Of a DNA stretch of 64,000 bases, positions 9,660 through 58,834 are shown in pieces. The DNA is from a bacterium. GTDB lineage: Bacteria > Patescibacteriota > Minisyncoccia > UBA6257 > GWB1-50-10. Location: NCBI GenBank assembly GCA_021814165.1, contig JAKAIX010000002.1, positions 69,371 to 133,370 of the forward strand, written 5' to 3'. The position numbers were made by a program, and so were the translations under genes. The notes beneath the pieces are model-generated. The model was not told where the DNA came from and made no database searches. It saw only the letters and a list, made by a program, of their open reading frames with translations. Every line of letters begins with the position of its first letter. Within the stretch, counting starts at the first letter, position 1.

Positions 9660-11429
9660 TTACACGACTTCTGCTTGATAACATGATTCGCAGTATACAA
9701 TCTCATGTCGCTCGGGCGCGTAGCTTGTCTCGAACTCGTTGGGACATTTCTCCGTCCCGTGAGTATGTTTCCCGGTATTTTGATAAACGCCGTTTTCCGA
9801 TTTCGATCCCACACATTGGCACTTTCTATGCCATAACTTAAGTGGATTCTTCCGAAAAAACCGCGCCTGATGTCTGCAGTTGGGACACAGACGCGGAAGG
9901 GGCAGATTCATCCTGCGGTGAAACGTGAGTTCCTCCGGAATGATTTTGAACGCCGTAGTACACTGATGCGCGCACTTCCCTTCGTGCGCGCATCCGACTA
10001 CCTCCTCCAAAATAGAATCCGGAACATCTTTAATGGTCTGCTGCAAATTTTTGCTCTCTTGCGTCACCTTATAGTTCCGCTCCTCCGGCTCCTTCCATAA
10101 AAATCCCTTTCCTGCCGCTTCCTGCTTTGAAAGAGGGAAGTAGTCCTGAGCGACCGTTTCGTTATATGCAAAGGGGCAGAGATCGGAGGAAAAAAATTCA
10201 CCGTATCCGAATCGCCGTCCTCCGGTATCCTGAAACGGTTTTTCTTTCATCTGCAGAACGACTTTTTCTCTTAATTCTTCATATTCCTCTTTCGAATATT
10301 GTTTGTTTAAAATGCAGTATTGCGCTTTCCGCAAACTTACGCACCCGAACAAATTATTCGAGTTCTCGCAGGTATCGCAGTATTCCGCATCAAAATCGTT
10401 CCATACGCAGTATCCGAACTTCACATTACTCGTCGTGATCGCGCTCACAATCTCATACGAAAACTGGCCATCATCAACCGCAACATACCCGTCATAACAG
10501 TTCCTGCTTTTGTTTCCGTGATTCATGAACTTCGAGTCCTCAAGCAATTCGGAATCGTATGCATGAAAGGCGTTTTTCGAGTTGAACACGTAGTCACCCG
10601 AAACGTTGGTGTTTTGAATCCCGTGGATGTGTTTTGATGGGAATCTTTTCCAGAACTCGAACGCGAGAACTCGCGTCGAGTCGATACCGTCCTGGGAGTC
10701 CAGTCTCATGGACTCCATTTCTTTCAAATAGTCCTCTTTCGAGTACTGCTTATTGAAAATCTGATAGCGCGCGTTCCGCAGGTTGGCACATCCGATACAG
10801 TCCTGGCAGTTCGCACAGTTCTTACAAAAGAAGAGGTCTTGGGAATCATTGCAATCCTCCGAAAAGCAGATCTTGTAGCACTTCCGGCACGTGACCGAAT
10901 CGTAAGAAAGTTCGCACTCGTGGCAATTCAGGAGATCCGCACTGTTGCGGCAATCGAAGGTTGAATACGAGTACATCAGATCCTCATTGTGGTCGCTTAC
11001 AAAGATAAGGTAACAATTTTTGTTGAACGCAGCGCCGTTCGCATAATCGCTCTTCACATTCTGAAATGCGAACGCATAAAGACGCGGAACTTTAAATTGC
11101 AGTTTCCTGAACTGTTCGAGAAAGGGCCTCGAGAAATCGACATCAACACCGAAAGAAAGCGGATCCCACTTATCCGAGTGGTAACACTCCCGGCAGTACA
11201 CTGTGTAGGGCTTGTCGGGAGAGTATATGGAAATTATGGTGTTGCCGCAGAGATCGCATTTTCTCCGGTACAAACTGCGTTCACAGCGCCAGATGAGGCG
11301 CCGCTGCAATCTGCATTCCGAACACCACGTGGGAGGAGGAACCTGTAGTTTCTCATAAAATGAAAAATCATCCGGTTCGATCGTGAACGATTGCTTGCAA
11401 TTCTGACAGATTTTGGATTCCGTATTCAT
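9660..11429 (-). CDS. Cysteine-rich multi-zinc-ribbon protein, paralog 1 of 3 (family not recognised)
   Basis: The true start is probably the internal Met (MNTESKICQNCKQSFTIEPDDF...) at 11429, not the track start at 11495. It has an N-terminal double CxxC ribbon (PPPTWCxxCRLQRR), two internal C-x2-C-x2-C...FGC...YCIxNKQYSKEEYE modules, and a C-terminal Cys/His cluster ending YCESCYQAEVV. Confidence 0.7.
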   Translation of the reverse strand: MNTESKICQNCKQSFTIEPDDFSFYEKLQVPPPTWCSECRLQRRLIWRCERSLYRRKCDLCGNTIISIYSPDKPYTVYCRECYHSDKWDPLSFGVDVDFSRPFLEQFRKLQFKVPRLYAFAFQNVKSDYANGAAFNKNCYLIFVSDHNEDLMYSYSTFDCRNSADLLNCHECELSYDSVTCRKCYKICFSEDCNDSQDLFFCKNCANCQDCIGCANLRNARYQIFNKQYSKEDYLKEMESMRLDSQDGIDSTRVLAFEFWKRFPSKHIHGIQNTNVSGDYVFNSKNAFHAYDSELLEDSKFMNHGNKSRNCYDGYVAVDDGQFSYEIVSAITTSNVKFGYCVWNDFDAEYCDTCENSNNLFGCVSLRKAQYCILNKQYSKEEYEELREKVVLQMKEKPFQDTGGRRFGYGEFFSSDLCPFAYNETVAQDYFPLSKQEAAGKGFLWKEPEERNYKVTQESKNLQQTIKDVPDSILEEVVGCAHEGKCAHQCTTAFKIIPEELTFHRRMNLPLPRLCPNCRHQARFFRKNPLKLWHRKCQCVGSKSENGVYQNTGKHTHGTEKCPNEFETSYAPERHEIVYCESCYQAEVV

Positions 11430-11498
11430 AATTCCCGTTACACGACTTCTGCTTGACCCTCCTTCGCTTTTCGAGCTACGAAGGGCAAGTAGCACCGC
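11430..11498 (-). other. 69-bp spacer between the tandem paralogs containing a fossil copy of a paralog 3' end (...QAEVV-stop + CGGGAATT)
   Basis: The 28-nt block TCAAGCAGAAGTCGTGTAACGGGAATTA at 9651-9678 (the C-terminal codons plus stop of paralog 1) is repeated at 11430-11456, directly upstream of the paralog 1 ATG. Confidence 0.6.
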
Positions 11499-13286
11499 TC
11501 ATACAACCTCCGCCTGATAACATCCCTCACAGTAGATGACCTCGGGTCGCTCCGGAGCGTACGGAGTTTCAAATTCGCTGGGACAGTGGGTGTTTCCATG
11601 AACGTGCTTACCGGTATTTTTGAAAATTTCCTTCTCGGAAGCGGCGCCCGCGCACATGCATTTCCGGTGCCAGAGCTTCAACGGATTGCGCTTCGAAAAC
11701 CGCTCATGGTGGCGGCAATTGGGGCAGAGGCGCGGAAGCGGTACTCCCAGCTGCTTGTACAAACTAAGCTCCTTGGGAATTATCTTGAAGGCGGTCGTGC
11801 ACTGCTCCACGCACTTCCCTTCGTGCGCGCATCCTACAACTTCGTTCAGGATAGAATCATTTACATCCTCGATACGATCCGGAAGATCATTGGCGCGTAC
11901 CGTGACGGTGTAATTTTTATTTTCCATTTCCCGCCATACGAGTCCGCGCGCTTCCATTTCCTCTTTAGTGAGCGGGTAATAATCTTGTGCAATTGTTTCG
12001 TTATAGGCGAAGGGTGAAAACTCCGGCGGGAAAAACTCGCCGTAGGCATACATCCTCCCCTTCTTATCCGTGTACGGCATCGCATTCATGTGGGCAACGA
12101 GCTTCGGCAACAGTAATTCATACTCCTCTTTTGTATACTGCCTGTTCAGGATGCAATACTGCTTGCTGTGCAATCCCACACACCCGAAGCAGTCCTGGCA
12201 TCCGGTGCAGCCAACCGAGTAGTAAATTCGCGCACTCCCCTTTATGAAGAAGCTGAAGTAATAGTCCTGGTTTTCATTCGATTCGAATCCTATCGCTATC
12301 GTCTCATACACTCTCTCGGCGCTCGGCATGCCGTAGTTGTCATACCCGTCCTTCACGCCGATCACCGCATACACCGTGTATTTCGAGTCCTCGGATCCGG
12401 TCCCCGACAGATCGAAACAGTTCTTGCAGTTCCTGGCGTTTCTCACGTTGTCACCAGTGGAGTTTTCCGTGTTGACCATAAACGCGTAGCGATGGAGTGA
12501 TTTTCGGTATAATTCGTCGAATTTCCGCTTGGCCTCCTGCAACGCCCCGTGGTTCCCGAGATTCAGCTCTTTCACCCGCTTTTCATATTCTTCTTTGGTT
12601 AGCTGCTCGTTAAAGAAACAATTACTCTTGCCTCGGAGATTCGCGCACCCGAAACAGTTCGTACAGTTCTTGCACTCATAAAGGAACCAGGAGTCGGAAC
12701 AGTTATCCGAGTATTTACTGAAAAGGAGTCGGTTAGAGTTCTCGCATTGGATATCCTCGTAGCAAAGTTCCATCTTCGAACAGTTAAAAAGATCGAGAGA
12801 ATCTCTCGTAGATGAGGTGGTCTCGGAATAGAGAAGGTCTTCGTTCTGCCTGCCGCCGAAAATGAGATAGGAATTTTTATTCGAGGCGGTGAAGTTGCAG
12901 TAATCGGAGTTCACCGATTGTGTATTAAAAAGATTGATCACGGGTACCGCTTTAAAGAGGTTTTTGAATTGGGATAAAAAACTTTCGCTGAAATCCAACT
13001 TCATGCCGTAAGACATCGGATCCCACGCATCGCCCCACCAGCATTCCTGGCAAAATACCGTCATCGGGCTCGTGTCGGATAGAAAGGAGATAATCGATTT
13101 CCCGCACTTGTCGCACTTTCTCCTGTAGAGCGATCTCTGGTTCCGGAACGCCAGGCGCCGTTGGAGCCGGCATGCCGGGCACCACGTGGGGGGAGGCACT
13201 TTCATCTTCTCGTAGAAGGCGAAGTCATCCGGCTCGATCGTGAACGATTGCTTGCAGTTTTGGCATTGTCGTGTTTCCTTCTCCAT
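11499..13286 (-). CDS. Cysteine-rich multi-zinc-ribbon protein, paralog 2 of 3
   Basis: 595 aa. It starts MEKETRQCQNCKQSFTIEPDDFAFYEKMKVPPPTWCPACRLQRR, has the same module architecture as paralog 1, and ends YCEGCYQAEVV. Confidence 0.7.
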   Translation of the reverse strand: MEKETRQCQNCKQSFTIEPDDFAFYEKMKVPPPTWCPACRLQRRLAFRNQRSLYRRKCDKCGKSIISFLSDTSPMTVFCQECWWGDAWDPMSYGMKLDFSESFLSQFKNLFKAVPVINLFNTQSVNSDYCNFTASNKNSYLIFGGRQNEDLLYSETTSSTRDSLDLFNCSKMELCYEDIQCENSNRLLFSKYSDNCSDSWFLYECKNCTNCFGCANLRGKSNCFFNEQLTKEEYEKRVKELNLGNHGALQEAKRKFDELYRKSLHRYAFMVNTENSTGDNVRNARNCKNCFDLSGTGSEDSKYTVYAVIGVKDGYDNYGMPSAERVYETIAIGFESNENQDYYFSFFIKGSARIYYSVGCTGCQDCFGCVGLHSKQYCILNRQYTKEEYELLLPKLVAHMNAMPYTDKKGRMYAYGEFFPPEFSPFAYNETIAQDYYPLTKEEMEARGLVWREMENKNYTVTVRANDLPDRIEDVNDSILNEVVGCAHEGKCVEQCTTAFKIIPKELSLYKQLGVPLPRLCPNCRHHERFSKRNPLKLWHRKCMCAGAASEKEIFKNTGKHVHGNTHCPSEFETPYAPERPEVIYCEGCYQAEVV

Positions 13287-14794: not shown

Positions 14795-14801
14795 TAGTTT
14801 G

Positions 14802-15139
14802 TGGAGATGGCCGGAGTTGAACCGGCATCCAGTAGCTTCCTTACAAACCTTCTACAAGCTTAGTCCGTTAAGACGATGTTTGATTCTTTGTTTAACGAGC
14901 GTATCCGAATCGCTATACACTCACGAGTCCCATGTATAACACCAGTGATCCTCTATGGAACCTGAAGGACTGATGCCCCTCCTTCGCATAAAGCTACGGG
15001 AGGGGATCCCACACTACGCGTAAGCGAGCGCGGGAACTGCGTTTCTATTGGCAGTTAAAATTGAGTGAAGAGTTTCACGAGATTTTCAGCTCGACCTGCG
15101 GTTTGCAAGGGAATGATACTGTCGAAGCCTAGCATCCCC
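14802..15139 (-). ncRNA. ssrA: tmRNA (SsrA), about 338 nt
   Basis: Minus-strand 5' GGGGATGCTAGGCTTCGAC and 3' ...GCCGGTTCAACTCCGGCCATCTCCA form a 7-bp acceptor stem with one G-U pair, and the T-arm is GCCGG-TTCAACT-CCGGC. A candidate tag ORF GCC AAT AGA AAC GCA GTT CCC GCG CTC GCT TAC GCG TAG encodes ANRNAVPALAYA. smpB is adjacent. Confidence 0.7.
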
Positions 15140-15186
15140 AACGGAAATTATCAATTTCCAATTTTCAAATAACGAACGAGGAGATA

Positions 15187-15636
15187 CTAATATGAACGTT
15201 TCTCGGCTCGTTTTATTTCACGCTCCGTCTCACGTTTCTTGATGGTTTCCCGTTTGTCATATTGTTTCTTGCCTCTTGCGAGCCCGAGCTCTATCTTCAC
15301 CCGAGCGCCTTTATTATACAATCTAACAGGCACCAGCGTCAACCCGCTCTTCGTTTTTCCTATAAGATAGGAGATTTCCTTTTTATTAAGAAGAAGTTTC
15401 TTCGTGCGCATCGAGTCGTAGTTTGCGGGCGCGTTTTTCGGTTGGAATGACGGCACGTCCATCCCCACGAGGAATAACTCCCCGCCGCGGACGATCGCGT
15501 GCGCTCCCGCAAGGTTTACGTGCCCCGTTTTGATGGATTTTGCCTCGTGTCCGGATAATACGATGCCGGCCTCGAATTTTTCGAGGATCTCATAGTCGAA
15601 TCTCGCTTTTTTGTTTTCCTTTACACCTTTCCGCAT
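15187..15636 (-). CDS. smpB: SsrA-binding protein SmpB
   Basis: 149 aa with an SmpB-like pattern (KKARFDYEILEKFEAGIVLSGHEAKSIK...LVPVRLY..GK.KVELALA.GKK.YDKRE) and a basic C-terminal tail. Confidence 0.85.
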   Translation of the reverse strand: MRKGVKENKKARFDYEILEKFEAGIVLSGHEAKSIKTGHVNLAGAHAIVRGGELFLVGMDVPSFQPKNAPANYDSMRTKKLLLNKKEISYLIGKTKSGLTLVPVRLYNKGARVKIELGLARGKKQYDKRETIKKRETEREIKRAEKRSY

Positions 15637-15824
15637 AACACTCTCACATTATCACACATAAAGTGAGGTGAAAAATAGGGGGTGAAAAAAGAGAAACTCA
15701 AATAAAGACAGGGAAAATTTCTAATCTATGGTTTTAAAGAGGCAGCGAAGCGACGACGTGAAATTCTGGCCATCTTTATAGAAAACCAAGGGGGTTTCTG
15801 CTTTTTGGTTAGTATTGGATTGCT

Positions 15825-15853
15825 TTGACTTTCGATTTATTTTCGACTATAAT
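15825..15853 (+). promoter_or_regulatory. Consensus sigma70-type promoter TTGACT-N17-TATAAT whose spacer is the 17-nt motif TTTCGATTTATTTTCGA (candidate LexA operator)
   Basis: TTGACT is at 15825-15830 and TATAAT at 15848-15853. The 17-mer at 15830-15846 is identical to 17316-17332, just upstream of the lexA ATG. Confidence 0.5.
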
Positions 15854-15922
15854 GAAAACACAACATGAAGGCAAAAACTCGGATGTGGATAACTAACAAA
15901 GGCCGGAAGACAAAGTAAAAAT

Positions 15923-16114
15923 ATGCCATTAGGAGAACATCAGAGGACAAAAGAGGGTACGTTCAGAAGAGAGCGGAGCGATTCCAAGGTGGGTAATCTT
16001 AAGGAGGATTATCCCGTACTAGACCAATTCAATGGAAATACTCATCTGGGAACGCTTTTAGAAAAGTACGACGTTGATTCCTTAAGTCAATTACTCAAAA
16101 AGTTACGTAAGTGA
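15923..16114 (+). CDS. Hypothetical small protein (63 aa)
   Basis: ORF downstream of the candidate promoter; it overlaps the next gene in an ATGA junction. Confidence 0.35.
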   Translation: MPLGEHQRTKEGTFRRERSDSKVGNLKEDYPVLDQFNGNTHLGTLLEKYDVDSLSQLLKKLRK

Positions 16115-16587
16115 GTATGTCACCGATCTTAACCTCAGCGGTTATAGCCGGGCTTGTGAGTGCGATGATAAGTGGCGCGGTTCAGATTTATGCCTGGTTT
16201 CTTAATCACAACCAAGAGCGCTATCAGCAACTCTATGGGCCATTAAGGTTGAATCTCTTAATGATGCAAGTTATCACTGAAAATAGTGAGGAAGTTGCTA
16301 AAGAGATTCGAGAGACTATCGGAAATATTGAAATGAGAATTGAATCGCTTTCAACTCACATATCCCCACTCACAAGAGAATGGCTAGCTCATCGGGACAC
16401 TATCAAGTTACTATTTGAGAAACATATCGGATTAGTCAGGCGTCGGGATCTCGCGTTAGTTAAGGAATTTATGGATGCACATCTCAAGCGCAAAATAATA
16501 CAGGAGGGTCAGAACTCACTTGCAACAGAAGAACGCATAACAAAAATTATAGACATTATAAAGGAACTTCAAAATAAACTTCTATGA
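16111..16587 (+). CDS. Hypothetical membrane-anchored protein (158 aa: one N-terminal TM helix then a coiled-coil-like region); candidate SOS-regulated gene
   Basis: The N-terminus ILTSAVIAGLVSAMISGAVQIYAWF is hydrophobic. The operon carries the lexA-promoter motif in its own promoter. Confidence 0.4.
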   Translation: MSMSPILTSAVIAGLVSAMISGAVQIYAWFLNHNQERYQQLYGPLRLNLLMMQVITENSEEVAKEIRETIGNIEMRIESLSTHISPLTREWLAHRDTIKLLFEKHIGLVRRRDLALVKEFMDAHLKRKIIQEGQNSLATEERITKIIDIIKELQNKLL

Positions 16588-16654
16588 CACCTATAATTTC
16601 CTGAACCGCCATGAAAAAATTCCATCGTCGGAAGAGTTTGATGTAGTATAGAAC

Positions 16655-16687
16655 AAAAAAACCGCCAACTGCATCGGCGGTTTTTTG
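16655..16687. terminator. Bidirectional terminator AAAAAAACCGCC-AACTGCAT-CGGCGGTTTTTT
   Basis: Lies between the convergent 158-aa gene and lexA. Confidence 0.65.
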
Positions 16688-16692
16688 TTTTT

Positions 16693-17307
16693 CTAGTCAG
16701 CCTTACGTTTAATCACCCCGAGCACTACTCCCTGAATCGCGAATCCGGTGTTGCCGCTTCGCACGATGATCGGTTCCATTTTTTTGTTCGCGGGCTGTAA
16801 TCTTACCTGTCCCCTTTCTTTGAAGAAGGTTTTGAGTGTCGCCTCGTGATTGTCGATGAGTGCAACGACTTTCTCTCCGTTGTCCGCGGTCGACTGATGA
16901 CGCACCAGAACGATGTCGCCATCGTTGATGTTCTCGTCGATCATGCTGTTGCCGACGACCTTCAACGCGTAAATGTTTCCCAGAGAACGCGGAAGCCGGC
17001 TTCTCGGAATCGCGATAATTTCTTTCGTTTCCATCGCCTCTATCGGCATACCGGCCGCGATCGTGCCGAGTAAAGGAATTTGAATCATCTGTTCCGATTG
17101 GAAAACATCGATGCCGCGCGGCTGGTTTTCTTCCCTGCTCAGATATCCCAGACCTTCCAACGCTTTTACGTGGTGATGGGCCGTCGAAACGGAAGACAAA
17201 CCGAGATGTTTTTTTATCTCCTCGAGAGACGGAGCATACCCCTTCTTCTTCTTATAGCCCCCTATGAAATCCAGGGCTTCTTTCTGTTTTTTGGTGATTG
17301 GCGACAT
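16693..17307 (-). CDS. lexA: LexA repressor (winged-HTH + S24 peptidase)
   Basis: 204 aa with an N-terminal HTH, an Ala-Gly cleavage-site region (GTIAAGMPIEA), a VVGNSM serine motif and a catalytic Lys region (LKTFFKERGQVRL). Confidence 0.8.
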   Translation of the reverse strand: MSPITKKQKEALDFIGGYKKKKGYAPSLEEIKKHLGLSSVSTAHHHVKALEGLGYLSREENQPRGIDVFQSEQMIQIPLLGTIAAGMPIEAMETKEIIAIPRSRLPRSLGNIYALKVVGNSMIDENINDGDIVLVRHQSTADNGEKVVALIDNHEATLKTFFKERGQVRLQPANKKMEPIIVRSGNTGFAIQGVVLGVIKRKAD

Positions 17308-17315
17308 GGTTATGT

Positions 17316-17332
17316 TTTCGATTTATTTTCGA
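17316..17332 (-). promoter_or_regulatory. 17-nt motif TTTCGATTTATTTTCGA (TTCGA-N6-TTCGA direct repeat, 11-bp period) immediately upstream of the lexA start; candidate LexA box
   Basis: Identical to 15830-15846. It lies between a TTGACT-N16-TAGAAT promoter-like pair and the lexA ATG on the minus strand. Confidence 0.45.
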
Positions 17333-17409
17333 TTCTACTACAAGCACGCGGTAAGTCAAAGGGTGCGGTTATCCACACCCCCACAGTAAAATCCCAAATA
17401 ACTTCATAG

Positions 17410-17490
17410 CCCCGCACGCATCCCTCCGAACGAGGGTAAGACCGGCCAAGCGGCCTTGGAGCGCCCGAGTGAGGGGGAATGTGTGCGGGG
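17410..17490. mobile_element. MITE-like element of about 81 bp with imperfect terminal inverted repeats (CCCCGCACGCATCCCTC ... GAGGGGGAATGTGTGCGGGG); family B
   Basis: It shares the internal blocks CGAACGAGGGTAAG and GGAGCGCCCGAGT with the element at 58741-58834, and has a central palindrome CCAAGCGGCCTTGG. Confidence 0.55.
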
Positions 17491-21312: not shown

Positions 21313-23058
21313 TTATACCACCTCTTTTTGATAGCACTCCTCGCAATACACGACCTCGGGACGATCGGGAGCATACGGCGTTTCGAACTCATTAGGACAC
21401 CTCTCCGGATGTCCGTGATCCGAACCATTGCACATGCATGAACGCCGCCAAAGACGGATGTTTAAGGGATTCCTGTATTCTATTCTTTCATAATGCCGGC
21501 AGTTGGGGCACAACCACGGGAGAGGGAGATGCATCCTCCGATAGAACTGGAGTTCCGACTCCAGAATCCTGAACGCGGTGGTACACTGATGTTCGCACGA
21601 CCCGTTGTGCGCGCACCTTATCGTTTCCTCCGTTATCGAATCGGAAACATTTTTGATGTCGCGAGGTAATTGTCCGGGATCTTTCGTAACGCGGTACTCT
21701 CGCGGAACCGAAACTCCCCAGCGGAAACCAGATTCGATGGCTTTTTCCTTTGTCACGGGATAATATTCCTGCGCGATCGATTCGTTGTACGCGAAGGGAG
21801 AAAACTCCGCCGGAAAGAACTCTCCGAAGGCGTACGTCCTCCCCTTTTCGTCTTTGTACGGCATTGCGTTCATGTGCTCGATGATTTTCGGAATCATCGA
21901 CTCATATTCCTCCTTCGAGTACGGCTTGTTTAGAATATGGTATTGCTTTTTCCGCAACCCCGCGCACCCGAAAATATTCTGCGAAGTTCTGCAGTAATCG
22001 CAGTAGGTTGCGTCACGGATGTCCTCAAAGGTGTTCGTGGAAAACCTGATGAGCGAGTCCCTATATCCCACGTTCACGCCGTCGTACAGGAGTTCCGCTC
22101 CGTTTCCTACGCCATAGAGATCCGCCGAGTCCTTCGCCTCAATGACTCTGATGCCGTAACTCACGTTTTCCAGATCTTCGCCGGTAAAACAATATCTGGC
22201 GTTCTTCGCGTTGATAAGGTTGTTCCCGGTGGCGTTCACGGTTTTGAACAAGCTCGCAAAACGGTGAATTGCTTTCGTCCTCAACGCCTCATACTCGGGG
22301 ATAAGCGCCTGAAACGCCACGCGATCTCCCAAACCCAATTCGCTCATTCTTCGTTCATACTCCTCCTTGGAAAGTTCCTGATTCCTGAACACATATGATT
22401 TGTTCCGCAGGTTTGAACTCATAAAACAATTCCTGCATCCCCTGCAATCGTAGAGAAAAGCGGAGTCAAGACATTCCCTGCAATCGGTCAGATACACGGC
22501 GTTGGCACACCGTTGACAGTCCTGTGATCCATAACAGAGTTGGGAGTCGTACAGGTAGGTTGAGTCCATACTGTCCTGACAGCGCGTGGTTCCGTGGCAG
22601 TAGGAAATATTCTCCGAGTATATGACTGACGAGGAAAGATATACGTTCTTGCTTATCCAGGTGTAGTTGGTGTAGGGCGAGCCCTCATTTTGATAGGCCT
22701 CGAGCGCCATTTTGGGAACCCTCTTGAGAAGCTCCGCGAACTGCACGAAAAACGGTTTACCGAAGTCGTAATCCGTTCCGTACTCCGTCGGATCCCATTT
22801 GTCCGACCACCAACACTCGTTGCAGTATACGATTATGTCCGCGTCGGGATGATACATGGTTATAATGTCCTTTTCACACAGGCCGCACTTCCTCTTAAAA
22901 AGCGCCCGCTCCTGACGGAATACCATCCTTCGCTTCATTCTGCACTCCGGACACCACGTGGGCGGCGGCACTTTTATGTGTTCATAAAACGTAAAATCGT
23001 CCTGCTCGATAACAAATCCTTGCTTGCAGTTTTGACACGTTCTCGATCCCATCTGCAT
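21313..23058 (-). CDS. Cysteine-rich multi-zinc-ribbon protein, paralog 3 of 3
   Basis: 581 aa. It starts MQMGSRTCQNCKQGFVIEQDDFTFYEHIKVPPPTWCPECRMKRR, has the same internal modules, and ends YCEECYQKEVV. Confidence 0.7.
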   Translation of the reverse strand: MQMGSRTCQNCKQGFVIEQDDFTFYEHIKVPPPTWCPECRMKRRMVFRQERALFKRKCGLCEKDIITMYHPDADIIVYCNECWWSDKWDPTEYGTDYDFGKPFFVQFAELLKRVPKMALEAYQNEGSPYTNYTWISKNVYLSSSVIYSENISYCHGTTRCQDSMDSTYLYDSQLCYGSQDCQRCANAVYLTDCRECLDSAFLYDCRGCRNCFMSSNLRNKSYVFRNQELSKEEYERRMSELGLGDRVAFQALIPEYEALRTKAIHRFASLFKTVNATGNNLINAKNARYCFTGEDLENVSYGIRVIEAKDSADLYGVGNGAELLYDGVNVGYRDSLIRFSTNTFEDIRDATYCDYCRTSQNIFGCAGLRKKQYHILNKPYSKEEYESMIPKIIEHMNAMPYKDEKGRTYAFGEFFPAEFSPFAYNESIAQEYYPVTKEKAIESGFRWGVSVPREYRVTKDPGQLPRDIKNVSDSITEETIRCAHNGSCEHQCTTAFRILESELQFYRRMHLPLPWLCPNCRHYERIEYRNPLNIRLWRRSCMCNGSDHGHPERCPNEFETPYAPDRPEVVYCEECYQKEVV

Positions 23059-23091: not shown

Positions 23092-23147
23092 TTTGAGGCC
23101 CGGCTTCCCCCGCCTGCGCAGGCAGGTCTCGAAGGCCGGGCCTCAAA
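23092..23147. repeat. GC-rich nested palindromic repeat, family A (TTGAGGCCCGGCTTCC-CCCGCCTGCGCAGGCAGG-TCTCGAAGGCCGGGCCTCAA)
   Basis: Same architecture as 2786-2837. It lies between the divergent starts of paralog 3 and the GDPD gene. Confidence 0.7.
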
Positions 23148-23935: not shown

Positions 23936-24104
23936 GACCGTCAAGTTATCCACAAAATATGAATGGAGCCCTACGTCGCTTCACTCCTCAGGATGATTGA
24001 TTTTCTAAGCTCCTTACGTCGCTAAGAAAATCGAATCAGCCACGGCCTCGATAGACCACGATATAACACTTTATTAACGATCGTGAGAGAAGTGTTATAG
24101 AAAA

Positions 24105-34580: not shown

Positions 34581-34774
34581 TGTGCCCTCGATAGGAAGCA
34601 AACGTCGCTTCGCTCCTTGAGAACCCTCGGTTCTCAACGGGCTTCGCCCTGCTCTCCTACACGGGAGACCAGCGTGTTCTCCCTGCCTGCGCAGGCGGGC
34701 CGACCCCACTCCTGTTCGATTCCTTTGAGAAAAAATCAAAAATCCCCAGGACAAGCCCGGGGACTTTTGATTTG
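34581..34774. other. Structured GC-rich segment bounded by a 17-nt imperfect direct repeat of the tRNA-Arg 3' end (TGTGCCCTCGAYAGGAA at 34581-34597 and 34773-34789)
   Basis: Contains the hairpin TTGAGAACC-CTC-GGTTCTCAA, a family-A core variant CCTGCCTGCGCAGGCGGG, and a terminator-like hairpin ATCAAAAGTCCCC...GGGGATTTTTGAT. Confidence 0.5.
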
Positions 34775-51721: not shown

Positions 51722-54226
51722 ATGCGGATCGGAAAAACAAAACCAAAGAGAAACGGGGCGAAGAAAACGTCCAGCAAAAAGAGGGTGATTCTTTCGGCTC
51801 TCATTGTTTCTTTTATTGTGGGGTTAAGCGTAACGGTGGTTGTTGTGGTATATGCAGTGGTTGCAATTCGACAGCTTCCTTCTCCCGATCAATTCTCAAC
51901 GCGGCAGGTGAGCCAGTCGACAAAGCTTTATGACCGGACTGGAAAAATTCTCCTCTACGAAATACATGGCGAAGAAAAACGAACGGTTGTGCCCCTATCA
52001 GATATTCCGGACACCCTGAAGAACGCGACCCTCGCGGCGGAGGACTCCAACTTTTATACGAGGCCGGCGTTTGATTGGAAGGGTATACTTCGTGCGGTTT
52101 GGACCGACATCAAGGAGTGGCGCGCGGCCGCCGGCGGATCAACGATCACTCAACAGCTAGCACGAAACGCTTTTCTCTCCGGAGAAAAAACCATTACGAG
52201 AAAGATTAAGGAATTAATTCTCGCGATAGAGCTTGAGGCAAAATACCCGAAAAATGACATTCTCGGTTTTTATTTAAACCAAATTCCTTACGGATCGAAT
52301 GCATACGGGGTTGAGGCGGCAAGCCAAACCTACTTTAATAAGCCGGTGAGGGATATTACCCTGAATGAGGCGGCAATACTTGCGGGCATTGTAAAGGCGC
52401 CCAGCTACTATTCCCCATGGGGAACACACACCGACGACCTTATAGTGAGGAAGAATTACGTTCTTGATAGAATGGCGGCGCTCGGGTTTATAACCCAACA
52501 GGAGGCGGACGCGGCAAAAAAAGAGATGCCGAAATTCGCACCGCCGTCTCTTGGATCTATTAAGGCGCCTCATTTCTCCCTTGCGGTAAAAGACTGGCTC
52601 ATAGATAAATATGGGGAGGATTTAGTGACAAACGGCGGACTTAGGGTTATCACCACGCTCGACTGGTCTATGCAACAAACCGCGGAGAAGGTGGTACAAG
52701 AAGGAGCCAAACGCAACAGCGAGCTCTATAAAGGAACAAACGCGGCGCTCGTAGCCCAGGACCCGAAGACCGGACAAATTCTTGCGCTCGTAGGGTCACA
52801 CGATTATTTCGACACGGAACACGGCGGAAACTTCAATGTTCCTCTCCAAGGACTCCGACAACCGGGATCGGCGTTGAAGCCGTTTGTATATATGATGGCA
52901 TTCGAGAAAGGATACCTGCCAAAAACCACCATTTTTGACGTACCAACCGAGTTTGTCTCGGGAAGCAGCAATTGCCCCCCCATTCCCTCCCTTGACGACT
53001 CCTCTCCCCATACCGAGTGTTTTCACCCTCAGGACTTTGAGCCGTTCACCGGTCCCGTTACGCTTGAGCAGGCGCTGGCACAATCAATAAACGTGCCAGC
53101 GGTGAAGATGCTTTACCTTGTCGGCTTAAGAAACGTTTTGGATACCGCGCGTTCTCTCGGAATATCAACACTTACCGACCCGTCGCGTTACGGCCTCTCG
53201 CTGGTCTTGGGGGGCGGCGAAGTAAAGATGATAGAGCTTGTAAATGCATATGCAACACTTTCTCAGGAGGGGGTAAGGCACGATCAGACTATGGTGCTTG
53301 AGGTTTCCGATTCAAATGGAAAAATACTCGAAACATACCGCGACCAGAACACGAAGGTTATCGACCCGGAATATCCTCGGCTTATAAACCAAATTCTCTC
53401 CGATAAGGAATTGCGTTCAGGACTCTTTCAGGGGAGCTTATCACTCACCGTGTTCCCCGACCACGACGTTGCCCTTAAGACGGGTACCACAAACGATTAT
53501 CGCGACGCGTGGGCGTTCGGATATACCCCCTCGCTTGTGGTGGGAGTCTGGGCGGGAAATAACAACAACGCGCCAATGCAACGTCAGGGGTCAAGTATCC
53601 TTGCGGCGGTGCCTATGTGGAGCGATTTCCTAAGCAGGGTATTACCAAACTATCCTCAGGAGCTTTTTTCAAAGCCCGATCCCCTGCCCACATTCCAAAA
53701 ACCGATGTTAAGCGGGCAATTTGTGTATGATGCGGCCGTTGGTGGGGAGGCGCGCCCTCAAATACACTCGATCCTTTATTATGTGGATAAAAACGACCCG
53801 ACCGGGCCAATTCCAAAAGACCCGTCAGAGGATCCTCAGTTTACGAACTGGGAGGCGGGGGTGCTCAATTGGGCACAAAAAAACGTATCGAGTTTCAGTT
53901 CTTTTAATAAATCTATCCCGCTTGGAGCCGGCGCGAGCGAGACCGGCGGGAACATAACAATACAAAACGTTGTCCCCTCAAACGGATCTTTTGTTGTTTC
54001 TCCGTTTCGTGTCCGCGCCGATATACGCTCAATAAATCCCATACAAACGGTTGGTGTTTATATAAACGATATTCCCGTGACGGTGCTTGATGGAATATCT
54101 CAAACACATTATTATCTCGACTACCAAACGACGCAAACACTCGACCCCCAAAACACCCTTGAAATTAGAGCCGTTGATTCGGGCGGGAAGGCCGCCTCAT
54201 CGAAAACAATAGTGTACCGCCGCTAG
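51722..54226 (+). CDS. Class A penicillin-binding protein (PBP1A: glycosyltransferase + transpeptidase) with a C-terminal extension
   Basis: GT51 motifs (EDSNFYTRPAFDW, GGSTITQQLAR), transpeptidase motifs, and an N-terminal TM helix. The start is approximate. Confidence 0.8.
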   Translation: MRIGKTKPKRNGAKKTSSKKRVILSALIVSFIVGLSVTVVVVVYAVVAIRQLPSPDQFSTRQVSQSTKLYDRTGKILLYEIHGEEKRTVVPLSDIPDTLKNATLAAEDSNFYTRPAFDWKGILRAVWTDIKEWRAAAGGSTITQQLARNAFLSGEKTITRKIKELILAIELEAKYPKNDILGFYLNQIPYGSNAYGVEAASQTYFNKPVRDITLNEAAILAGIVKAPSYYSPWGTHTDDLIVRKNYVLDRMAALGFITQQEADAAKKEMPKFAPPSLGSIKAPHFSLAVKDWLIDKYGEDLVTNGGLRVITTLDWSMQQTAEKVVQEGAKRNSELYKGTNAALVAQDPKTGQILALVGSHDYFDTEHGGNFNVPLQGLRQPGSALKPFVYMMAFEKGYLPKTTIFDVPTEFVSGSSNCPPIPSLDDSSPHTECFHPQDFEPFTGPVTLEQALAQSINVPAVKMLYLVGLRNVLDTARSLGISTLTDPSRYGLSLVLGGGEVKMIELVNAYATLSQEGVRHDQTMVLEVSDSNGKILETYRDQNTKVIDPEYPRLINQILSDKELRSGLFQGSLSLTVFPDHDVALKTGTTNDYRDAWAFGYTPSLVVGVWAGNNNNAPMQRQGSSILAAVPMWSDFLSRVLPNYPQELFSKPDPLPTFQKPMLSGQFVYDAAVGGEARPQIHSILYYVDKNDPTGPIPKDPSEDPQFTNWEAGVLNWAQKNVSSFSSFNKSIPLGAGASETGGNITIQNVVPSNGSFVVSPFRVRADIRSINPIQTVGVYINDIPVTVLDGISQTHYYLDYQTTQTLDPQNTLEIRAVDSGGKAASSKTIVYRR

Positions 54227-55329
54227 CCCTTAATCGGCATCACCACGTAAATAAGGTGCGGCTCTTTCGGGTTACGAAGAAGCGCCGGACGCTCTGAGGA
54301 GTGGATTCCTAAAGTTATATCGGTGCCGGAAAAAACCTTAAGTCCATCAAGAAGATAGCGCCAATTAAAAACTACGGAAAATTTTTCTCCCGATAATTTT
54401 GCCGGCACTTTATAAGAACTTTCTCCGAGCGCGCTGTCGGTAGCGTACACCTCGAGAAATTTTTTATTATCACCCGATTTAAGAGTTATGTCGTTCGCTC
54501 TTCCCGAGAAAGAGCTTGCGAGCCGCACGGCGTTTATAAACTCTTGCCGCTCAATTATCGCCTCGTGCGGCGTATTCTTAGGGATCACCGCGCGATAATC
54601 GGGAAATGATCCGTCGATGAGGCGTGAGGTTATTTTCTCGTTCGGCGCAGAAAGAAGTATTTGGTTTGATTCCACAAATATCGTTATTTCGTGCTGTTCT
54701 TTAAAAACCTTCAGAAGCTCCGATGCCGTCTTCAGGGGAATTATGACCGAGATTTTTTCCGCGTCCGTTTTTATACTGCCCGACTCCAACTTCTTTTCGG
54801 CGAGACGAAATCCGTCCGTAGCGGCAAAAACCGCATCACCTCCGGAATATTCAAAATATACGCCGCTTATTTCCGGGCGTATGTCGGAGTACTGTGCCGC
54901 AACAATAACGCTCGCAAGCGCCCCGCGAAAAGACTCCACGCCGCACACGAAGCGTTGTGCTTCCTTATGAACCGAGGGAATAATAGGAAACTCTTTCGGG
55001 TCCTGTCCTTGAAGCACCGCCTCATAATTATCGGTGGTTATTATCACCTTCCCCTCTTTTTCCTCAATCGATATGCGCTCCGCGGCGAGGTTTCGTATAA
55101 TCGAACAAAAAAGGGAGAAGGGTAGTGCCACCCCTCCTTCCTCCAGCACCTTTCCCGACATCGAGTACTCGACGGCGAGCTCGAGGTTGGTGGTGATGAG
55201 TATTATTTTCCCTCCCTCCGCCCTCAGGAGAACGTTTTTTAAAATAGGAAGGTTTGAGCTTTCGTTCACCGCTCTTTCCACAATACCCAGTCCTTCTACT
55301 AGGTTAGTTTTTAATAGTAGTATTTTCAT
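54223..55329 (-). CDS. dnaN: DNA polymerase III beta sliding clamp
   Basis: 368 aa. The N-terminus MKILLLKTNLVEGLGIVERAV... is typical of DnaN, and the gene is adjacent to dnaA. Confidence 0.85.
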   Translation of the reverse strand: MKILLLKTNLVEGLGIVERAVNESSNLPILKNVLLRAEGGKIILITTNLELAVEYSMSGKVLEEGGVALPFSLFCSIIRNLAAERISIEEKEGKVIITTDNYEAVLQGQDPKEFPIIPSVHKEAQRFVCGVESFRGALASVIVAAQYSDIRPEISGVYFEYSGGDAVFAATDGFRLAEKKLESGSIKTDAEKISVIIPLKTASELLKVFKEQHEITIFVESNQILLSAPNEKITSRLIDGSFPDYRAVIPKNTPHEAIIERQEFINAVRLASSFSGRANDITLKSGDNKKFLEVYATDSALGESSYKVPAKLSGEKFSVVFNWRYLLDGLKVFSGTDITLGIHSSERPALLRNPKEPHLIYVVMPIKG

Positions 55330-55502
55330 ATTAGTAGTAATAGTAGGTCGTGTGTAGAAGTGTATAACTCTTGTTTTCTTCGTGTTTTTCTCGCTTTAAA
55401 CACTTTCTTTACTAGAATAATAAGGGGACAACATCGTGATCTTTTTCTATTAATGTGTATAATTATTTTTTTCCCGAAAATACATCCACACAATATCCAC
55501 AG
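55330..55502. other. Candidate oriC segment between dnaA and dnaN, with DnaA-box-like 9-mers and an AT-rich stretch
   Basis: AGTGTATAA (55351), TGTGTATAA (55454), ATCCACACA (55484) and TATCCACAG (55494), against the consensus TTATCCACA/TGTGGATAA, plus ATAATTATTTTTTTCCCGAAAATACA. Confidence 0.55.
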
Positions 55503-56885
55503 CTACATTTTGAATAATCGCTCCTTTATGAGAAGTATTTTTTGGTTAAGGCCGTGGTCTTGGCTGCACTCTTTGTTTATTTTCTCACAAGCGTGTATCG
55601 CGGTAGTGTGATCCCGTTTTCCAAGACGCTCACCGATATGCGGATATGAAAGTTTTAAAATATCTCTCATAAGAAACATGGCTATTTGTCGCGGTTGCAC
55701 CACCTCCTGTTTTCTCCCCCTGTTTAACATGTCGCTTGGAGAAACCTCAAAAAAGTCAGCAACCGCTTTTATAATATCGTTCGCGGTTATGTTTTTGGGG
55801 GTAACCTGGACCGCCTCCCCTATAATTTCCTCGAGTTTTTTCGTGTCAATCTTCTCGTTTTTATATTGTTGATAGAAAATTATTTTATTCAATACTCCCT
55901 CGAGTTCTCTTACGTTTTTTTGAACCCTCGTTGCAACCTGCTCGAGAATATGGTCGTCAACAAGAGAACCCTTCTCTTGGAGTTTTGTTTTAAGAATAGC
56001 GAGCCGGGTTTCGTAGTCGGGATATTCCACATCTACAATCATTCCGCCCTCAAAGCGGGATCGAAGCCTCTCTTCAAGCGTAGGAATCGCGGTCGGCGGC
56101 CTATCGGAAGAAATAATAATCTGTTTATTATTTTCATAAAGGGTATTGAAGGTGTAGAAAAACTCTTGTTCCGTGGCGGTCTTTCCGCCGATGAATTGAA
56201 TGTCGTCGATAATAAGTACGTCTATGTCCCTGTATTTTTTTTTCACATCCTCCATGCGTTTATTGCGGACCGCCCACACCACGTCGTTTATAAATTTTTC
56301 CGAGGAAACGTACAGCGTAGCCACCGAATTTTTATACTCTTTAGAGATTTCATTTCCGATGGCCTGGATCAGGTGGGTCTTTCCCAGCCCCACCCCCCCG
56401 TATACGAACAAGGGGTTGTATTTTTTCCCTACGTCTTTCACCACCGCCTGGGAGGCAGCATACGCCAACTCATTTGATGATCCGACGACGAATGTTGAAA
56501 ACGTATATCGAGGATTCAGGTTTGTTCTGGGATCAATTTTTAATTCAATAAGAGGGGGCTGCGGCTCCTCGGCGGCGACCGGTTCTTGTGGTCTCGCTTT
56601 TTTACCTTGCACAATAACCGCGTGCGCGGAGCCCTGACTCAGGACGGCATAGTCAACATTTTTTATCGATCCGTCGATGTTTCTCAGAGACCCGAGAATA
56701 AGTTTGTGATATCTGCTCTTCACCCACTCCTTCGCAAAATTATTAGGGAGACCGACAAGCACCACCCCTTCCCGCTCATTTTTTTCGAGGAGCTGGCTGT
56801 TTTTGAGCCAGGTTAGAAAATTAGGTCTCGATATCTGAAGCTCGATGTCTCCTAGTACGCTTTGCCAGAGTTCTTTATTTTCCAT
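55503..56885 (-). CDS. dnaA: Chromosomal replication initiator DnaA
   Basis: AAA+ Walker A GGVGLGKTHL and a C-terminal DnaA-box-binding domain. Confidence 0.9.
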   Translation of the reverse strand: MENKELWQSVLGDIELQISRPNFLTWLKNSQLLEKNEREGVVLVGLPNNFAKEWVKSRYHKLILGSLRNIDGSIKNVDYAVLSQGSAHAVIVQGKKARPQEPVAAEEPQPPLIELKIDPRTNLNPRYTFSTFVVGSSNELAYAASQAVVKDVGKKYNPLFVYGGVGLGKTHLIQAIGNEISKEYKNSVATLYVSSEKFINDVVWAVRNKRMEDVKKKYRDIDVLIIDDIQFIGGKTATEQEFFYTFNTLYENNKQIIISSDRPPTAIPTLEERLRSRFEGGMIVDVEYPDYETRLAILKTKLQEKGSLVDDHILEQVATRVQKNVRELEGVLNKIIFYQQYKNEKIDTKKLEEIIGEAVQVTPKNITANDIIKAVADFFEVSPSDMLNRGRKQEVVQPRQIAMFLMRDILKLSYPHIGERLGKRDHTTAIHACEKINKECSQDHGLNQKILLIKERLFKM

Positions 56886-57016
56886 GGTGGTTTAGAAAAC
56901 GCGCTTTCCCTTAAGAATAGAAACTTTTTCAAGGAATGCAACATTGCGGCAAAAACGATTTTGTGCTTTACCTGTGCATTGCTTGTGTATAGTGATTTCT
57001 GGGGTATAATCCGATT

Positions 57017-57151
57017 ATGGCACAGACGTATCAGCCGAAAAAAAAGAAGCGGAAGCGAACGCACGGATTCTTAAAGCGCGCGCGCTCTTCGGGCGGGCGG
57101 AACGTGCTTCTAAGAAGGAGAGCAAAGAAGCGGAAACGGTTAAGCGTGTGA
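57017..57151 (+). CDS. rpmH: Ribosomal protein L34
   Basis: [44 protein letters not shown] is the classic L34 sequence. It is too short for the ORF track. Confidence 0.85.
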
Positions 57152-58740: not shown

Positions 58741-58834
58741 GCGCCATACTCCTTCGAACGAGGGTAAGGCTTGGCCAAGCCTGCCTGCGCAGGCAGGCGG
58801 CCCGGAGCGCCCGAGTCGAGAAGGAGTATGGCGC
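58741..58834. mobile_element. MITE-like element, family B copy 2, with perfect 14-bp terminal inverted repeats (GCGCCATACTCCTT / AAGGAGTATGGCGC) and an embedded family-A core CCTGCCTGCGCAGGCAGG
   Basis: Shares the CGAACGAGGGTAAG and GGAGCGCCCGAGT blocks with 17410-17490. Confidence 0.6.

Follow-up and report, generated by a model that had tools for sequence, protein, structure and literature searches.

A 17-nt sequence, TTTCGATTTATTTTCGA, is present twice in a 64-kb segment of a Patescibacteria genome (contig JAKAIX010000002.1; the whole segment is termed the window here). One copy is situated at the promoter of lexA and the other at the promoter of a cassette of two small open reading frames, ORF63 and ORF156. 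The question raised by this locus is whether the 17-mer is the operator of the LexA protein encoded beside it, and what kind of cassette shares that operator. Patescibacteria are uncultured bacteria with reduced genomes, and their regulation can be read only from sequence. The analysis reported here indicates that the 17-mer is probably the operator of this LexA, a TTCGA variant of the 11-bp-period Patescibacteria box, which would autoregulate lexA and silence the accessory ORF63-ORF156 operon until damage occurs.

The two copies of the 17-mer

Searches for motifs, promoters, terminators and repeats covered the 64-kb window. The initial annotation of this locus had described an identical 17-mer at 15830-15846 and 17316-17332. 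Both copies are exact and both lie on the plus strand; there is no third copy in the window even when three mismatches are allowed, and none of 100 dinucleotide-preserving shuffles of the window, which served as the chance control, contains an exact match. Outside the 17 bases the two copies diverge at once: the first stands between ctttgac and ctataat, the second between ttatgt and ttctact. When the search is relaxed to TTCGA-N6-TTCGA with one mismatch allowed, the window holds 11 instances where 15.9 are expected. There is thus no enrichment of the relaxed pattern, and only the two perfect sites count.

An origin of the 17-mer by duplication of a larger segment was considered and rejected, as the flanks are unrelated. 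An origin as a dispersed repeat, the outcome that the initial annotation had itself named as damaging to its proposal, was likewise rejected: only two copies are found and their flanks are unrelated. The other 17-mers repeated in the window mostly belong to hairpins or to paralogous genes, and TTTCGATTTATTTTCGA is one of a handful of dispersed 17-mers to which neither applies.

The first copy (box 1) takes up the entire 17-bp spacer of a near-consensus promoter, as had been proposed, and the promoter scan matches 11 of 12 hexamer positions. The second copy (box 2) begins at the last base of the lexA -10 hexamer TAGAAT and covers the transcription start region. Its orientation and position are the same in the lexA loci L011-L013, L019, L025, L026 and L061. 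The proposed autoregulation of lexA is consistent with this placement, the box abutting the -10 element of the TTGACT-16-TAGAAT promoter.

Evidence for the 17-mer as the probable LexA operator

For comparison, 80 lexA loci were used, each from a different Patescibacteria species and amounting to 1.0 Mb in total. A direct repeat of the form TTCnn-N6-TTCnn, with halves at least 5/6 identical, is found within 200 bp upstream of 77 of these 80 lexA genes; the remainder of the 1.0 Mb has 0.049 such repeats per 200 bp. When only the strong half-site types TTCTA, TTCGG and TTCGA are considered, just 7 sites lie outside lexA promoters in the 1.0 Mb, and 5 of them are inside long open reading frames. 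The identical 17-mer is upstream of lexA in 7 other species (L011, L012, L013, L019, L025, L039, L061).

A metagenome scan for the exact 17-mer gave at least 15 further contigs with the sequence directly at lexA. Hits outside Patescibacteria are mostly in coding sequence or are chance matches. The recognised Patescibacterial hits in this exact-match scan are all at lexA promoters, and no further regulon members were obtained in that way.

The half-sites also co-vary with the LexA protein. In the 80-locus set, half-site bases 4-5 follow residue 45 of the recognition helix, in the numbering of the window LexA (...STAH-H45-HV...). Where residue 45 is H, the half-sites are mostly TTCGA, and where it is F or Y they are mostly TTCTA; where it is Q, E or D, the half-sites are TTCGG in 21 of 21 cases. 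The window LexA carries H45 and its half-sites are TTCGA. Taken together, conservation, covariation and autoregulatory placement support the 17-mer as the LexA operator about as firmly as sequence by itself allows. The proposal of this motif as the lineage's LexA box is supported by both the 77 of 80 upstream regions and the residue-45 relationship.

Some observations weigh against this reading. The association between residue 45 and half-site type (chi-square 89, p = 2e-18) is not corrected for shared ancestry. Boxes at classical repair genes, which the initial annotation had proposed to look for, are missing in the window at ruvB, ruvC and polA, and dnaA and dnaN are likewise without the motif. 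Further, the related cassettes of L004, L005 and L209 lie beside different repressors with different palindromic operators, thus LexA control of this gene family is not universal. Given the comparative evidence, the LexA assignment stands despite the lack of a box at ruvB, ruvC and polA.

A motif of this kind was known before. PMC7739468 credits the recognition of a direct repeat by Patescibacteria LexA to Sanchez-Osuna, Barbe & Erill, Environ Microbiol 2017 (see also PMC8565304). The suggestion that the window motif could define such a box thus comes after that publication, in which the direct-repeat LexA box of Patescibacteria was reportedly described already. Like that motif, the window motif is a direct-repeat operator in lexA promoters, here with an 11-bp period and found in 77 of 80. 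The comparison with the alphaproteobacterial LexA box GTTC-N7-GTTC, also made in the initial annotation, is apt, since both are direct repeats built on TTC with a period of 11 bp, and GTTCGG-N5-GTTCGG or GTTCTA-N5-GTTCTA is the form present in some Patescibacteria lexA promoters (L059, L077, L079). However, in the window motif TTC is preceded by T rather than G and must be followed by GA. The window LexA also belongs to a clade different from alphaproteobacterial LexA, its nearest relatives all being Patescibacteria.

Organization of the locus

The features of the locus are collected in Table 1. The window LexA consists of a winged-helix DNA-binding domain followed by an S24 self-cleaving peptidase. 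The cleavage site A84/A85/G86 and the catalytic residues S121 and K159 are invariant in an alignment of the window protein with 29 relatives. The closest relatives all belong to Patescibacteria/CPR (candidate phyla radiation), and an identical LexA protein is encoded on a contig of the metagenome-assembled genome GCA_027423885.1. On one side the lexA region is bordered by smpB and the tmRNA gene, and on the other side by CYTH and HD genes.

Table 1. Positions of features at the lexA locus and of related elements in the window
Feature	Position	Strand	Basis and remarks
tmRNA	14799-15139	-	Neighbour of the lexA region, same side as smpB
smpB	15187-15636	-	Neighbour of the lexA region, one side
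Cassette -35 hexamer TTGACT	15825..15830	+	Promoter scan; with TATAAT 11/12, 17-nt spacer
LexA box 1, TTTCGATTTATTTTCGA	15830..15846	+	Exact match; two TTCGA half-sites 11 bp apart, fills the -35/-10 spacer
Weaker candidate promoter TTGCCT-17-TATAGT towards smpB-ssrA	15846..15874	-	Promoter scan, 9/12
Cassette -10 hexamer TATAAT	15848..15853	+	Promoter scan
DnaA-box-like TGTGGATAAC	15884..15893 (9-mer 15884-15892)	+	5' leader of ORF63
ORF63	15923..16114	+	Small basic protein, two internal ~22-aa repeats
ORF156	16117..16587	+	N-terminal transmembrane helix, then helical bundle; starts 2 nt after the ORF63 stop
Intrinsic terminator, bidirectional, between converging cassette and lexA	16656..16686		Terminator scan
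lexA, 204 aa	16693..17307	-	Pfam PF01726 (LexA_DNA_bind) and PF00717 (Peptidase_S24)
LexA box 2, reads TCGAAAATAAATCGAAA on the lexA strand	17316..17332	-	Exact match
lexA promoter TTGACT-16-TAGAAT	17332..17359	-	Promoter scan, 10/12
DnaA-box-like TGTGGATAAC	17369..17378 (9-mer 17369-17377)	-	Upstream of the lexA -35, in lexA orientation
TGTGGATAA, third copy	23946-23954	-	Exact
TGTGGATAA, fourth copy	53782-53790	+	Exact

A weaker candidate promoter directed towards smpB-ssrA is present on the minus strand at box 1, and its -10 element abuts the box as in the lexA promoter. No box is found upstream of smpB in L011, L031 and L071. LexA control of smpB-ssrA through this promoter is a weak possibility.

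As a separate observation, many Patescibacteria have a lexA open reading frame that is extended in frame by an N6_N4 DNA methyltransferase domain at the C-terminal end. The fused proteins have 484-595 aa and the architecture LexA_DNA_bind + Peptidase_S24 + N6_N4_Mtase. Examples are found at L014 (10001-11593), L019 (10001-11452), L074 (10001-11458) and L166 (2156-3943), and also in P0083, P0094 and P0105. The 204-aa window LexA does not carry the methyltransferase fusion.

Between the stop codon of the CYTH gene and the lexA promoter, positions 17405-17485 of the minus strand hold an imperfect hairpin (CCCCGCACACAUUCCC...GGGAUGCGUGCGGGG) approximately 80 nt in length. It shows a predicted free energy of -46.3 kcal/mol (z = -4.3 relative to shuffles) and has no T-tract. 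A scan at gathering thresholds assigned it to no Rfam family.

Box-in-spacer promoters at other lexA loci

The design found at the cassette, TTGAC-[17-mer]-TATAAT, is also present beside lexA in nine other loci (L115, L120, L131, L137, L138, L140, L159, L162, L165). In these loci the strand opposite lexA carries TTGAC on one side of the box and a TATAAT-like hexamer on the other, and one box thus serves two divergent promoters. The divergent partner gene varies. SAVED+HNH, AAA_21/OLD-TOPRIM, DUF4238, metallo-beta-lactamase-fold and PNPOx-like proteins are represented, together with proteins of no assigned family. At L115 the first gene behind the box-in-spacer promoter is a homologue of ORF63, and it is followed by a DUF4238 gene. 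This arrangement independently links the ORF63 family to promoters with a predicted LexA box.

The genes divergent from lexA were also surveyed across 51 species (51 GTDB loci, alignment A7). They are very mixed and include RmuC, PIF1, UDG, GIY-YIG, Schlafen/AlbA_2 and HerA proteins, proteases and housekeeping genes. The position divergent from lexA looks like a variable slot under LexA control.

The ORF63-ORF156 cassette

Both open reading frames of the cassette exist as initially annotated, except that the second starts at the ATG at 16117, according to gene callers and homologues, and so encodes 156 rather than 158 aa. The proposal that the two form an SOS operon is very plausible, the putative operator overlapping the core promoter, and the ORF63-ORF156 operon is considered here a new candidate LexA (SOS) target. 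GC content is 0.38-0.41 across 15600-16800 and about 0.50 on both flanks. Relatives of ORF63 or ORF156 are present in none (0/80) of the other Patescibacteria lexA loci of the comparison set. By its low GC content and patchy distribution the cassette looks accessory, and it was probably acquired horizontally.

The ORF63 family consists of about 344 clusters of proteins of 60-70 residues, found in Patescibacteria, Omnitrophota, Ignavibacteria, Bacilli and others (P0124-P0243). It is strongly conserved, and a reading of the alignment shows two internal repeats of the form R-x-D-x-x-h-G-T-h-x-x-x-Y. ORF63 has no match in Pfam, NCBIfam, PHROGs or the PDB sequences, the latter searched with a family profile as well. 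A survey of 2.9 million viral contigs gave just 2 relatives of ORF63, both weak.

Neighbourhoods of the two families were compared at about a dozen loci. In all contexts examined, the ORF63-family gene comes first and is followed by variable cargo. The cargo is an ORF156 relative in the window and at L004, a DUF4238 gene at L115, N6/N4 methylases at L209, PycTM at L214, an RNase H-like protein at L216, a KAP NTPase at L221, a protein of no assigned family together with an MqsA-like HTH protein at L223, and a single such unassigned protein at L220. The adjoining regulators vary as well. ORF63-family genes adjoin true lexA in the window and at L115, diverged LexA-like S24 repressors at L004 and L209, and an HTH_3-M78 protein at L214. 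When both families are considered, LexA-like S24 repressors or an HTH-M78 regulator adjoin the genes at L004, L005, L209 and L214. The ORF63 homologues of L216, L220, L221 and L223 are without such an adjoining regulator.

The ORF156 family is small, with 27 representatives among 1.84 billion representative proteins. Its members share the motifs ER-Y-x-KLYGPL and F-x-DG-x-IKR. ORF156 displays a hydrophobic stretch at approximately residues 4-28. An AlphaFold2 model built from 20 sequences (predicted local distance difference test score, pLDDT, 90.5) shows a helix at positions 3-67, comprising the membrane anchor and its continuation, packed on three more helices. Thus ORF156 is predicted to be a rare membrane-anchored, all-helical protein. 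It matches no Pfam family and no meaningful NCBIfam or PHROGs family, and Foldseek comparison of its model with PDB and BFVD gives no match at E below 0.08. In a comparison of 20 ORF156-family members with PADLOC-DB, the best E-value is 0.0022 and each model is matched by a single member.

The relatives of ORF156 are found in varied surroundings. At L004 the neighbours are a LexA-like repressor and a type II restriction-modification system. At L005 the operon of the ORF156 relative is transcribed divergently from umuD/Y-family polymerase genes, and genes for an SRAP protein, a methylase and a serine recombinase are in the vicinity. At L228 the relative directly follows the specificity (S) subunit of a type I restriction-modification system, and at L219 it is beside an HD_4 gene.

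A DnaA-box-like element beside the LexA boxes

A second element accompanies both LexA boxes. The 9-mer TGTGGATAA is the reverse complement of the DnaA-box consensus TTATCCACA; it occurs 4 times exactly in the window (0.22 expected), and two of the four copies, each extended to the 10-mer TGTGGATAAC, are beside the two LexA boxes. In the 80 lexA upstream regions (L009-L088), TGTGGATAA is exact in 53 and present with one mismatch allowed in 69, relative to a background of 0.0045 per 200 bp. The placement of TGTGGATAAC upstream of the lexA -35 element is the same in the closest relatives, L009-L013. The distance between TGTGGATAAC and the LexA box is clade-specific, being 0-2 bp, 9-15 bp or about 50 bp. 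Thus the DnaA-box-like element looks like a separate site and not a part of the LexA operator.

Joint control by DnaA and LexA has been described in E. coli at uvrB, recN and dinJ (PMC6015884). Similar to those dual promoters, a perfect DnaA-box 9-mer is found beside the LexA operator at both window promoters and at most Patescibacteria lexA promoters, and DnaA and LexA may co-regulate them. In contrast to uvrB, recN and dinJ, the arrangement is here known from sequence, and the 9-mer could instead be the site of another factor or a part of promoter architecture.

The window also contains dnaA (55503-56885) and dnaN (54223-55329), both on the minus strand. The spacer between them (55330-55502) carries two DnaA boxes with 8 of 9 matches, at 55454 and 55493. 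No perfect DnaA box is present upstream of dnaA (56886-57017), where rpmH starts at about 57018.

Other repeats and genes of the window

A 20-mer, AATTATCAATTTCCAATTTT, is present at 812-831 and 15146-15165. The first copy is just 3' of a tRNA-Leu gene (713-797) and the second just upstream of the 5' end of the tmRNA (15139, minus strand). The repeat could serve both RNA genes as a promoter or processing element; alternatively, it might be the scar of an old integration.

Three paralogous Cys-rich proteins of approximately 580-610 aa are encoded on the minus strand at 9660-11495, 11499-13286 and 21313-23058. Their N-termini read ...CQNCKQ.F.IE.DDF.FY... and many CxxC pairs are present. Two of the genes are adjacent and have identical stretches of 17-28 nt in common. 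The protein encoded at 11499-13286, the one of the three paralogues searched, has no Pfam match.

A GC-rich palindrome, CC(T/C)GCCTGCGCAGGCAGG, is found at 2803-2822, 23109-23128, 34682-34699 and 58779-58798. It looks like a repetitive extragenic palindromic (REP)-type element.

Discussion

The organization of the locus suggests a simple regulatory cycle. In undamaged cells LexA dimers would sit on both sites. At box 2 LexA would mask the transcription start of lexA and so regulate its own synthesis, and at box 1 it would occupy the whole -35/-10 spacer, so that RNA polymerase is excluded and the ORF63-ORF156 operon stays silent. On DNA damage, RecA-stimulated self-cleavage of LexA, for which the cleavage residues are intact, would release both promoters. 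lexA and the cassette would then be transcribed until fresh LexA re-represses them. The product of the cassette would be a conserved small 'leader' protein together with a rare membrane-anchored helical protein, and not a core repair function.

Could the operator reading itself be mistaken? A repeated 17-mer in 64 kb is not rare in itself, and several other dispersed 17-mers are present, so the second copy might be a chance or non-functional copy, a dispersed repeat or the end of a mobile element, with no role at the ORF63 promoter. However, a perfect consensus operator is located exactly in a 17-bp promoter spacer, the identical design is found beside lexA in other species, no further copies appear in the window at three mismatches, the flanks are unrelated, and the second element of lexA promoters, TGTGGATAAC, is also nearby. 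Such an explanation is scarcely credible. Very improbable as well, if by a slightly lesser degree, is that some other regulator, which also controls lexA, binds the direct repeat in place of LexA. The conserved element TGTGGATAAC does show that lexA promoters hold more than one site, but half-site identity tracks a residue in the recognition helix of LexA itself, the site is at 77 of 80 lexA promoters and almost nowhere else in 1 Mb, and published work assigns a direct-repeat motif to Patescibacteria LexA (PMC7739468).

With the 17-mer taken as the LexA operator, the function of the cassette has to be considered. The initial annotation had favoured an SOS cell-division inhibitor of the YneA, DivS and ChiZ types. 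In such a reading ORF156, with or without ORF63, would be a functional analogue of YneA, ChiZ, DivS, SosA or SidA and would block the divisome until repair is finished. ORF156 resembles YneA, ChiZ, DivS and SosA in being a small single-pass membrane protein with one N-terminal transmembrane helix, encoded beside lexA and, as predicted, LexA-controlled through the box in its promoter. Known SOS division inhibitors are mutually unrelated and fast-evolving, so that a lack of homology is not decisive. A LysM or peptidoglycan-binding extracellular domain is a feature of YneA and ChiZ. However, ORF156 shows no LysM, peptidoglycan or divisome-related domain in Pfam, no structural match in PDB or BFVD, and no sequence or fold similarity to these inhibitors. 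Its operon converges on lexA from a promoter and box 1.5 kb away instead of being divergent from it, and the gene lies behind a separate conserved small open reading frame. Both families are sporadic accessory genes and missing from the 80 other Patescibacteria lexA loci. The relatives of ORF156 are in restriction-modification and umuDC/SRAP/recombinase contexts, which are typical of accessory or defence genes, and the partner ORF63 family precedes unrelated cargo (methylases, PycTM, KAP NTPase). A role in division inhibition is thus unlikely. A damage- or phage-triggered defence or abortive-infection module, with ORF156 as membrane effector and ORF63 as regulator or sensor, fired when LexA is inactivated, is ranked somewhat higher, although it too is a possibility to be held with doubt. 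It would agree with the PycTM, KAP NTPase, DUF4238, RNase H-like and methylase genes preceded by ORF63-family genes, with the restriction-modification contexts of the ORF156 family, with the SAVED+HNH, AAA_21/OLD-TOPRIM and DUF4238 genes driven by LexA-box promoters divergent from lexA in other Patescibacteria, and with the low GC content and patchy distribution of the cassette. Yet there is no meaningful PADLOC match (best E-value 0.0022), the only 2 ORF63 relatives in the viral contigs are not functionally informative, the evidence from neighbourhoods is circumstantial at about a dozen loci, and the survey of 51 species shows a very mixed set of lexA-divergent genes, among which are also ordinary repair and housekeeping genes. 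Much of the probability lies on other functions. The best guess is that the cassette encodes a stress-induced membrane effector drawn from the pool of defence and mobile-element genes, rather than a dedicated division inhibitor.

A broader and more tentative idea, somewhat less probable than the defence module, is that LexA in Patescibacteria guards an exchangeable slot for mobile, defence-like or accessory cargo, e.g. ORF63+ORF156, DUF4238, SAVED-HNH and OLD-like ATPases. The ORF63 family might then be a widespread leader or regulator that has gone unrecognised, and the promoters, that of lexA included, might be co-controlled through the DnaA box (TGTGGATAAC), coupling the damage response to the status of replication initiation.

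The locus offers a clean and testable case, a consensus promoter with what appears to be a perfect LexA operator in its spacer. A two-gene cassette without annotation thereby joins the small list of candidate SOS targets in Patescibacteria, and the covariation of residue 45 with the half-sites (H-GA, F/Y-TA, Q/E-GG) provides a compact recognition code. If the DnaA-box partner, the variable cargo beside lexA and the LexA-methyltransferase fusions are what they appear to be, they would point to a minimal genome in which damage sensing is wired to replication control and to accessory and defence genes.

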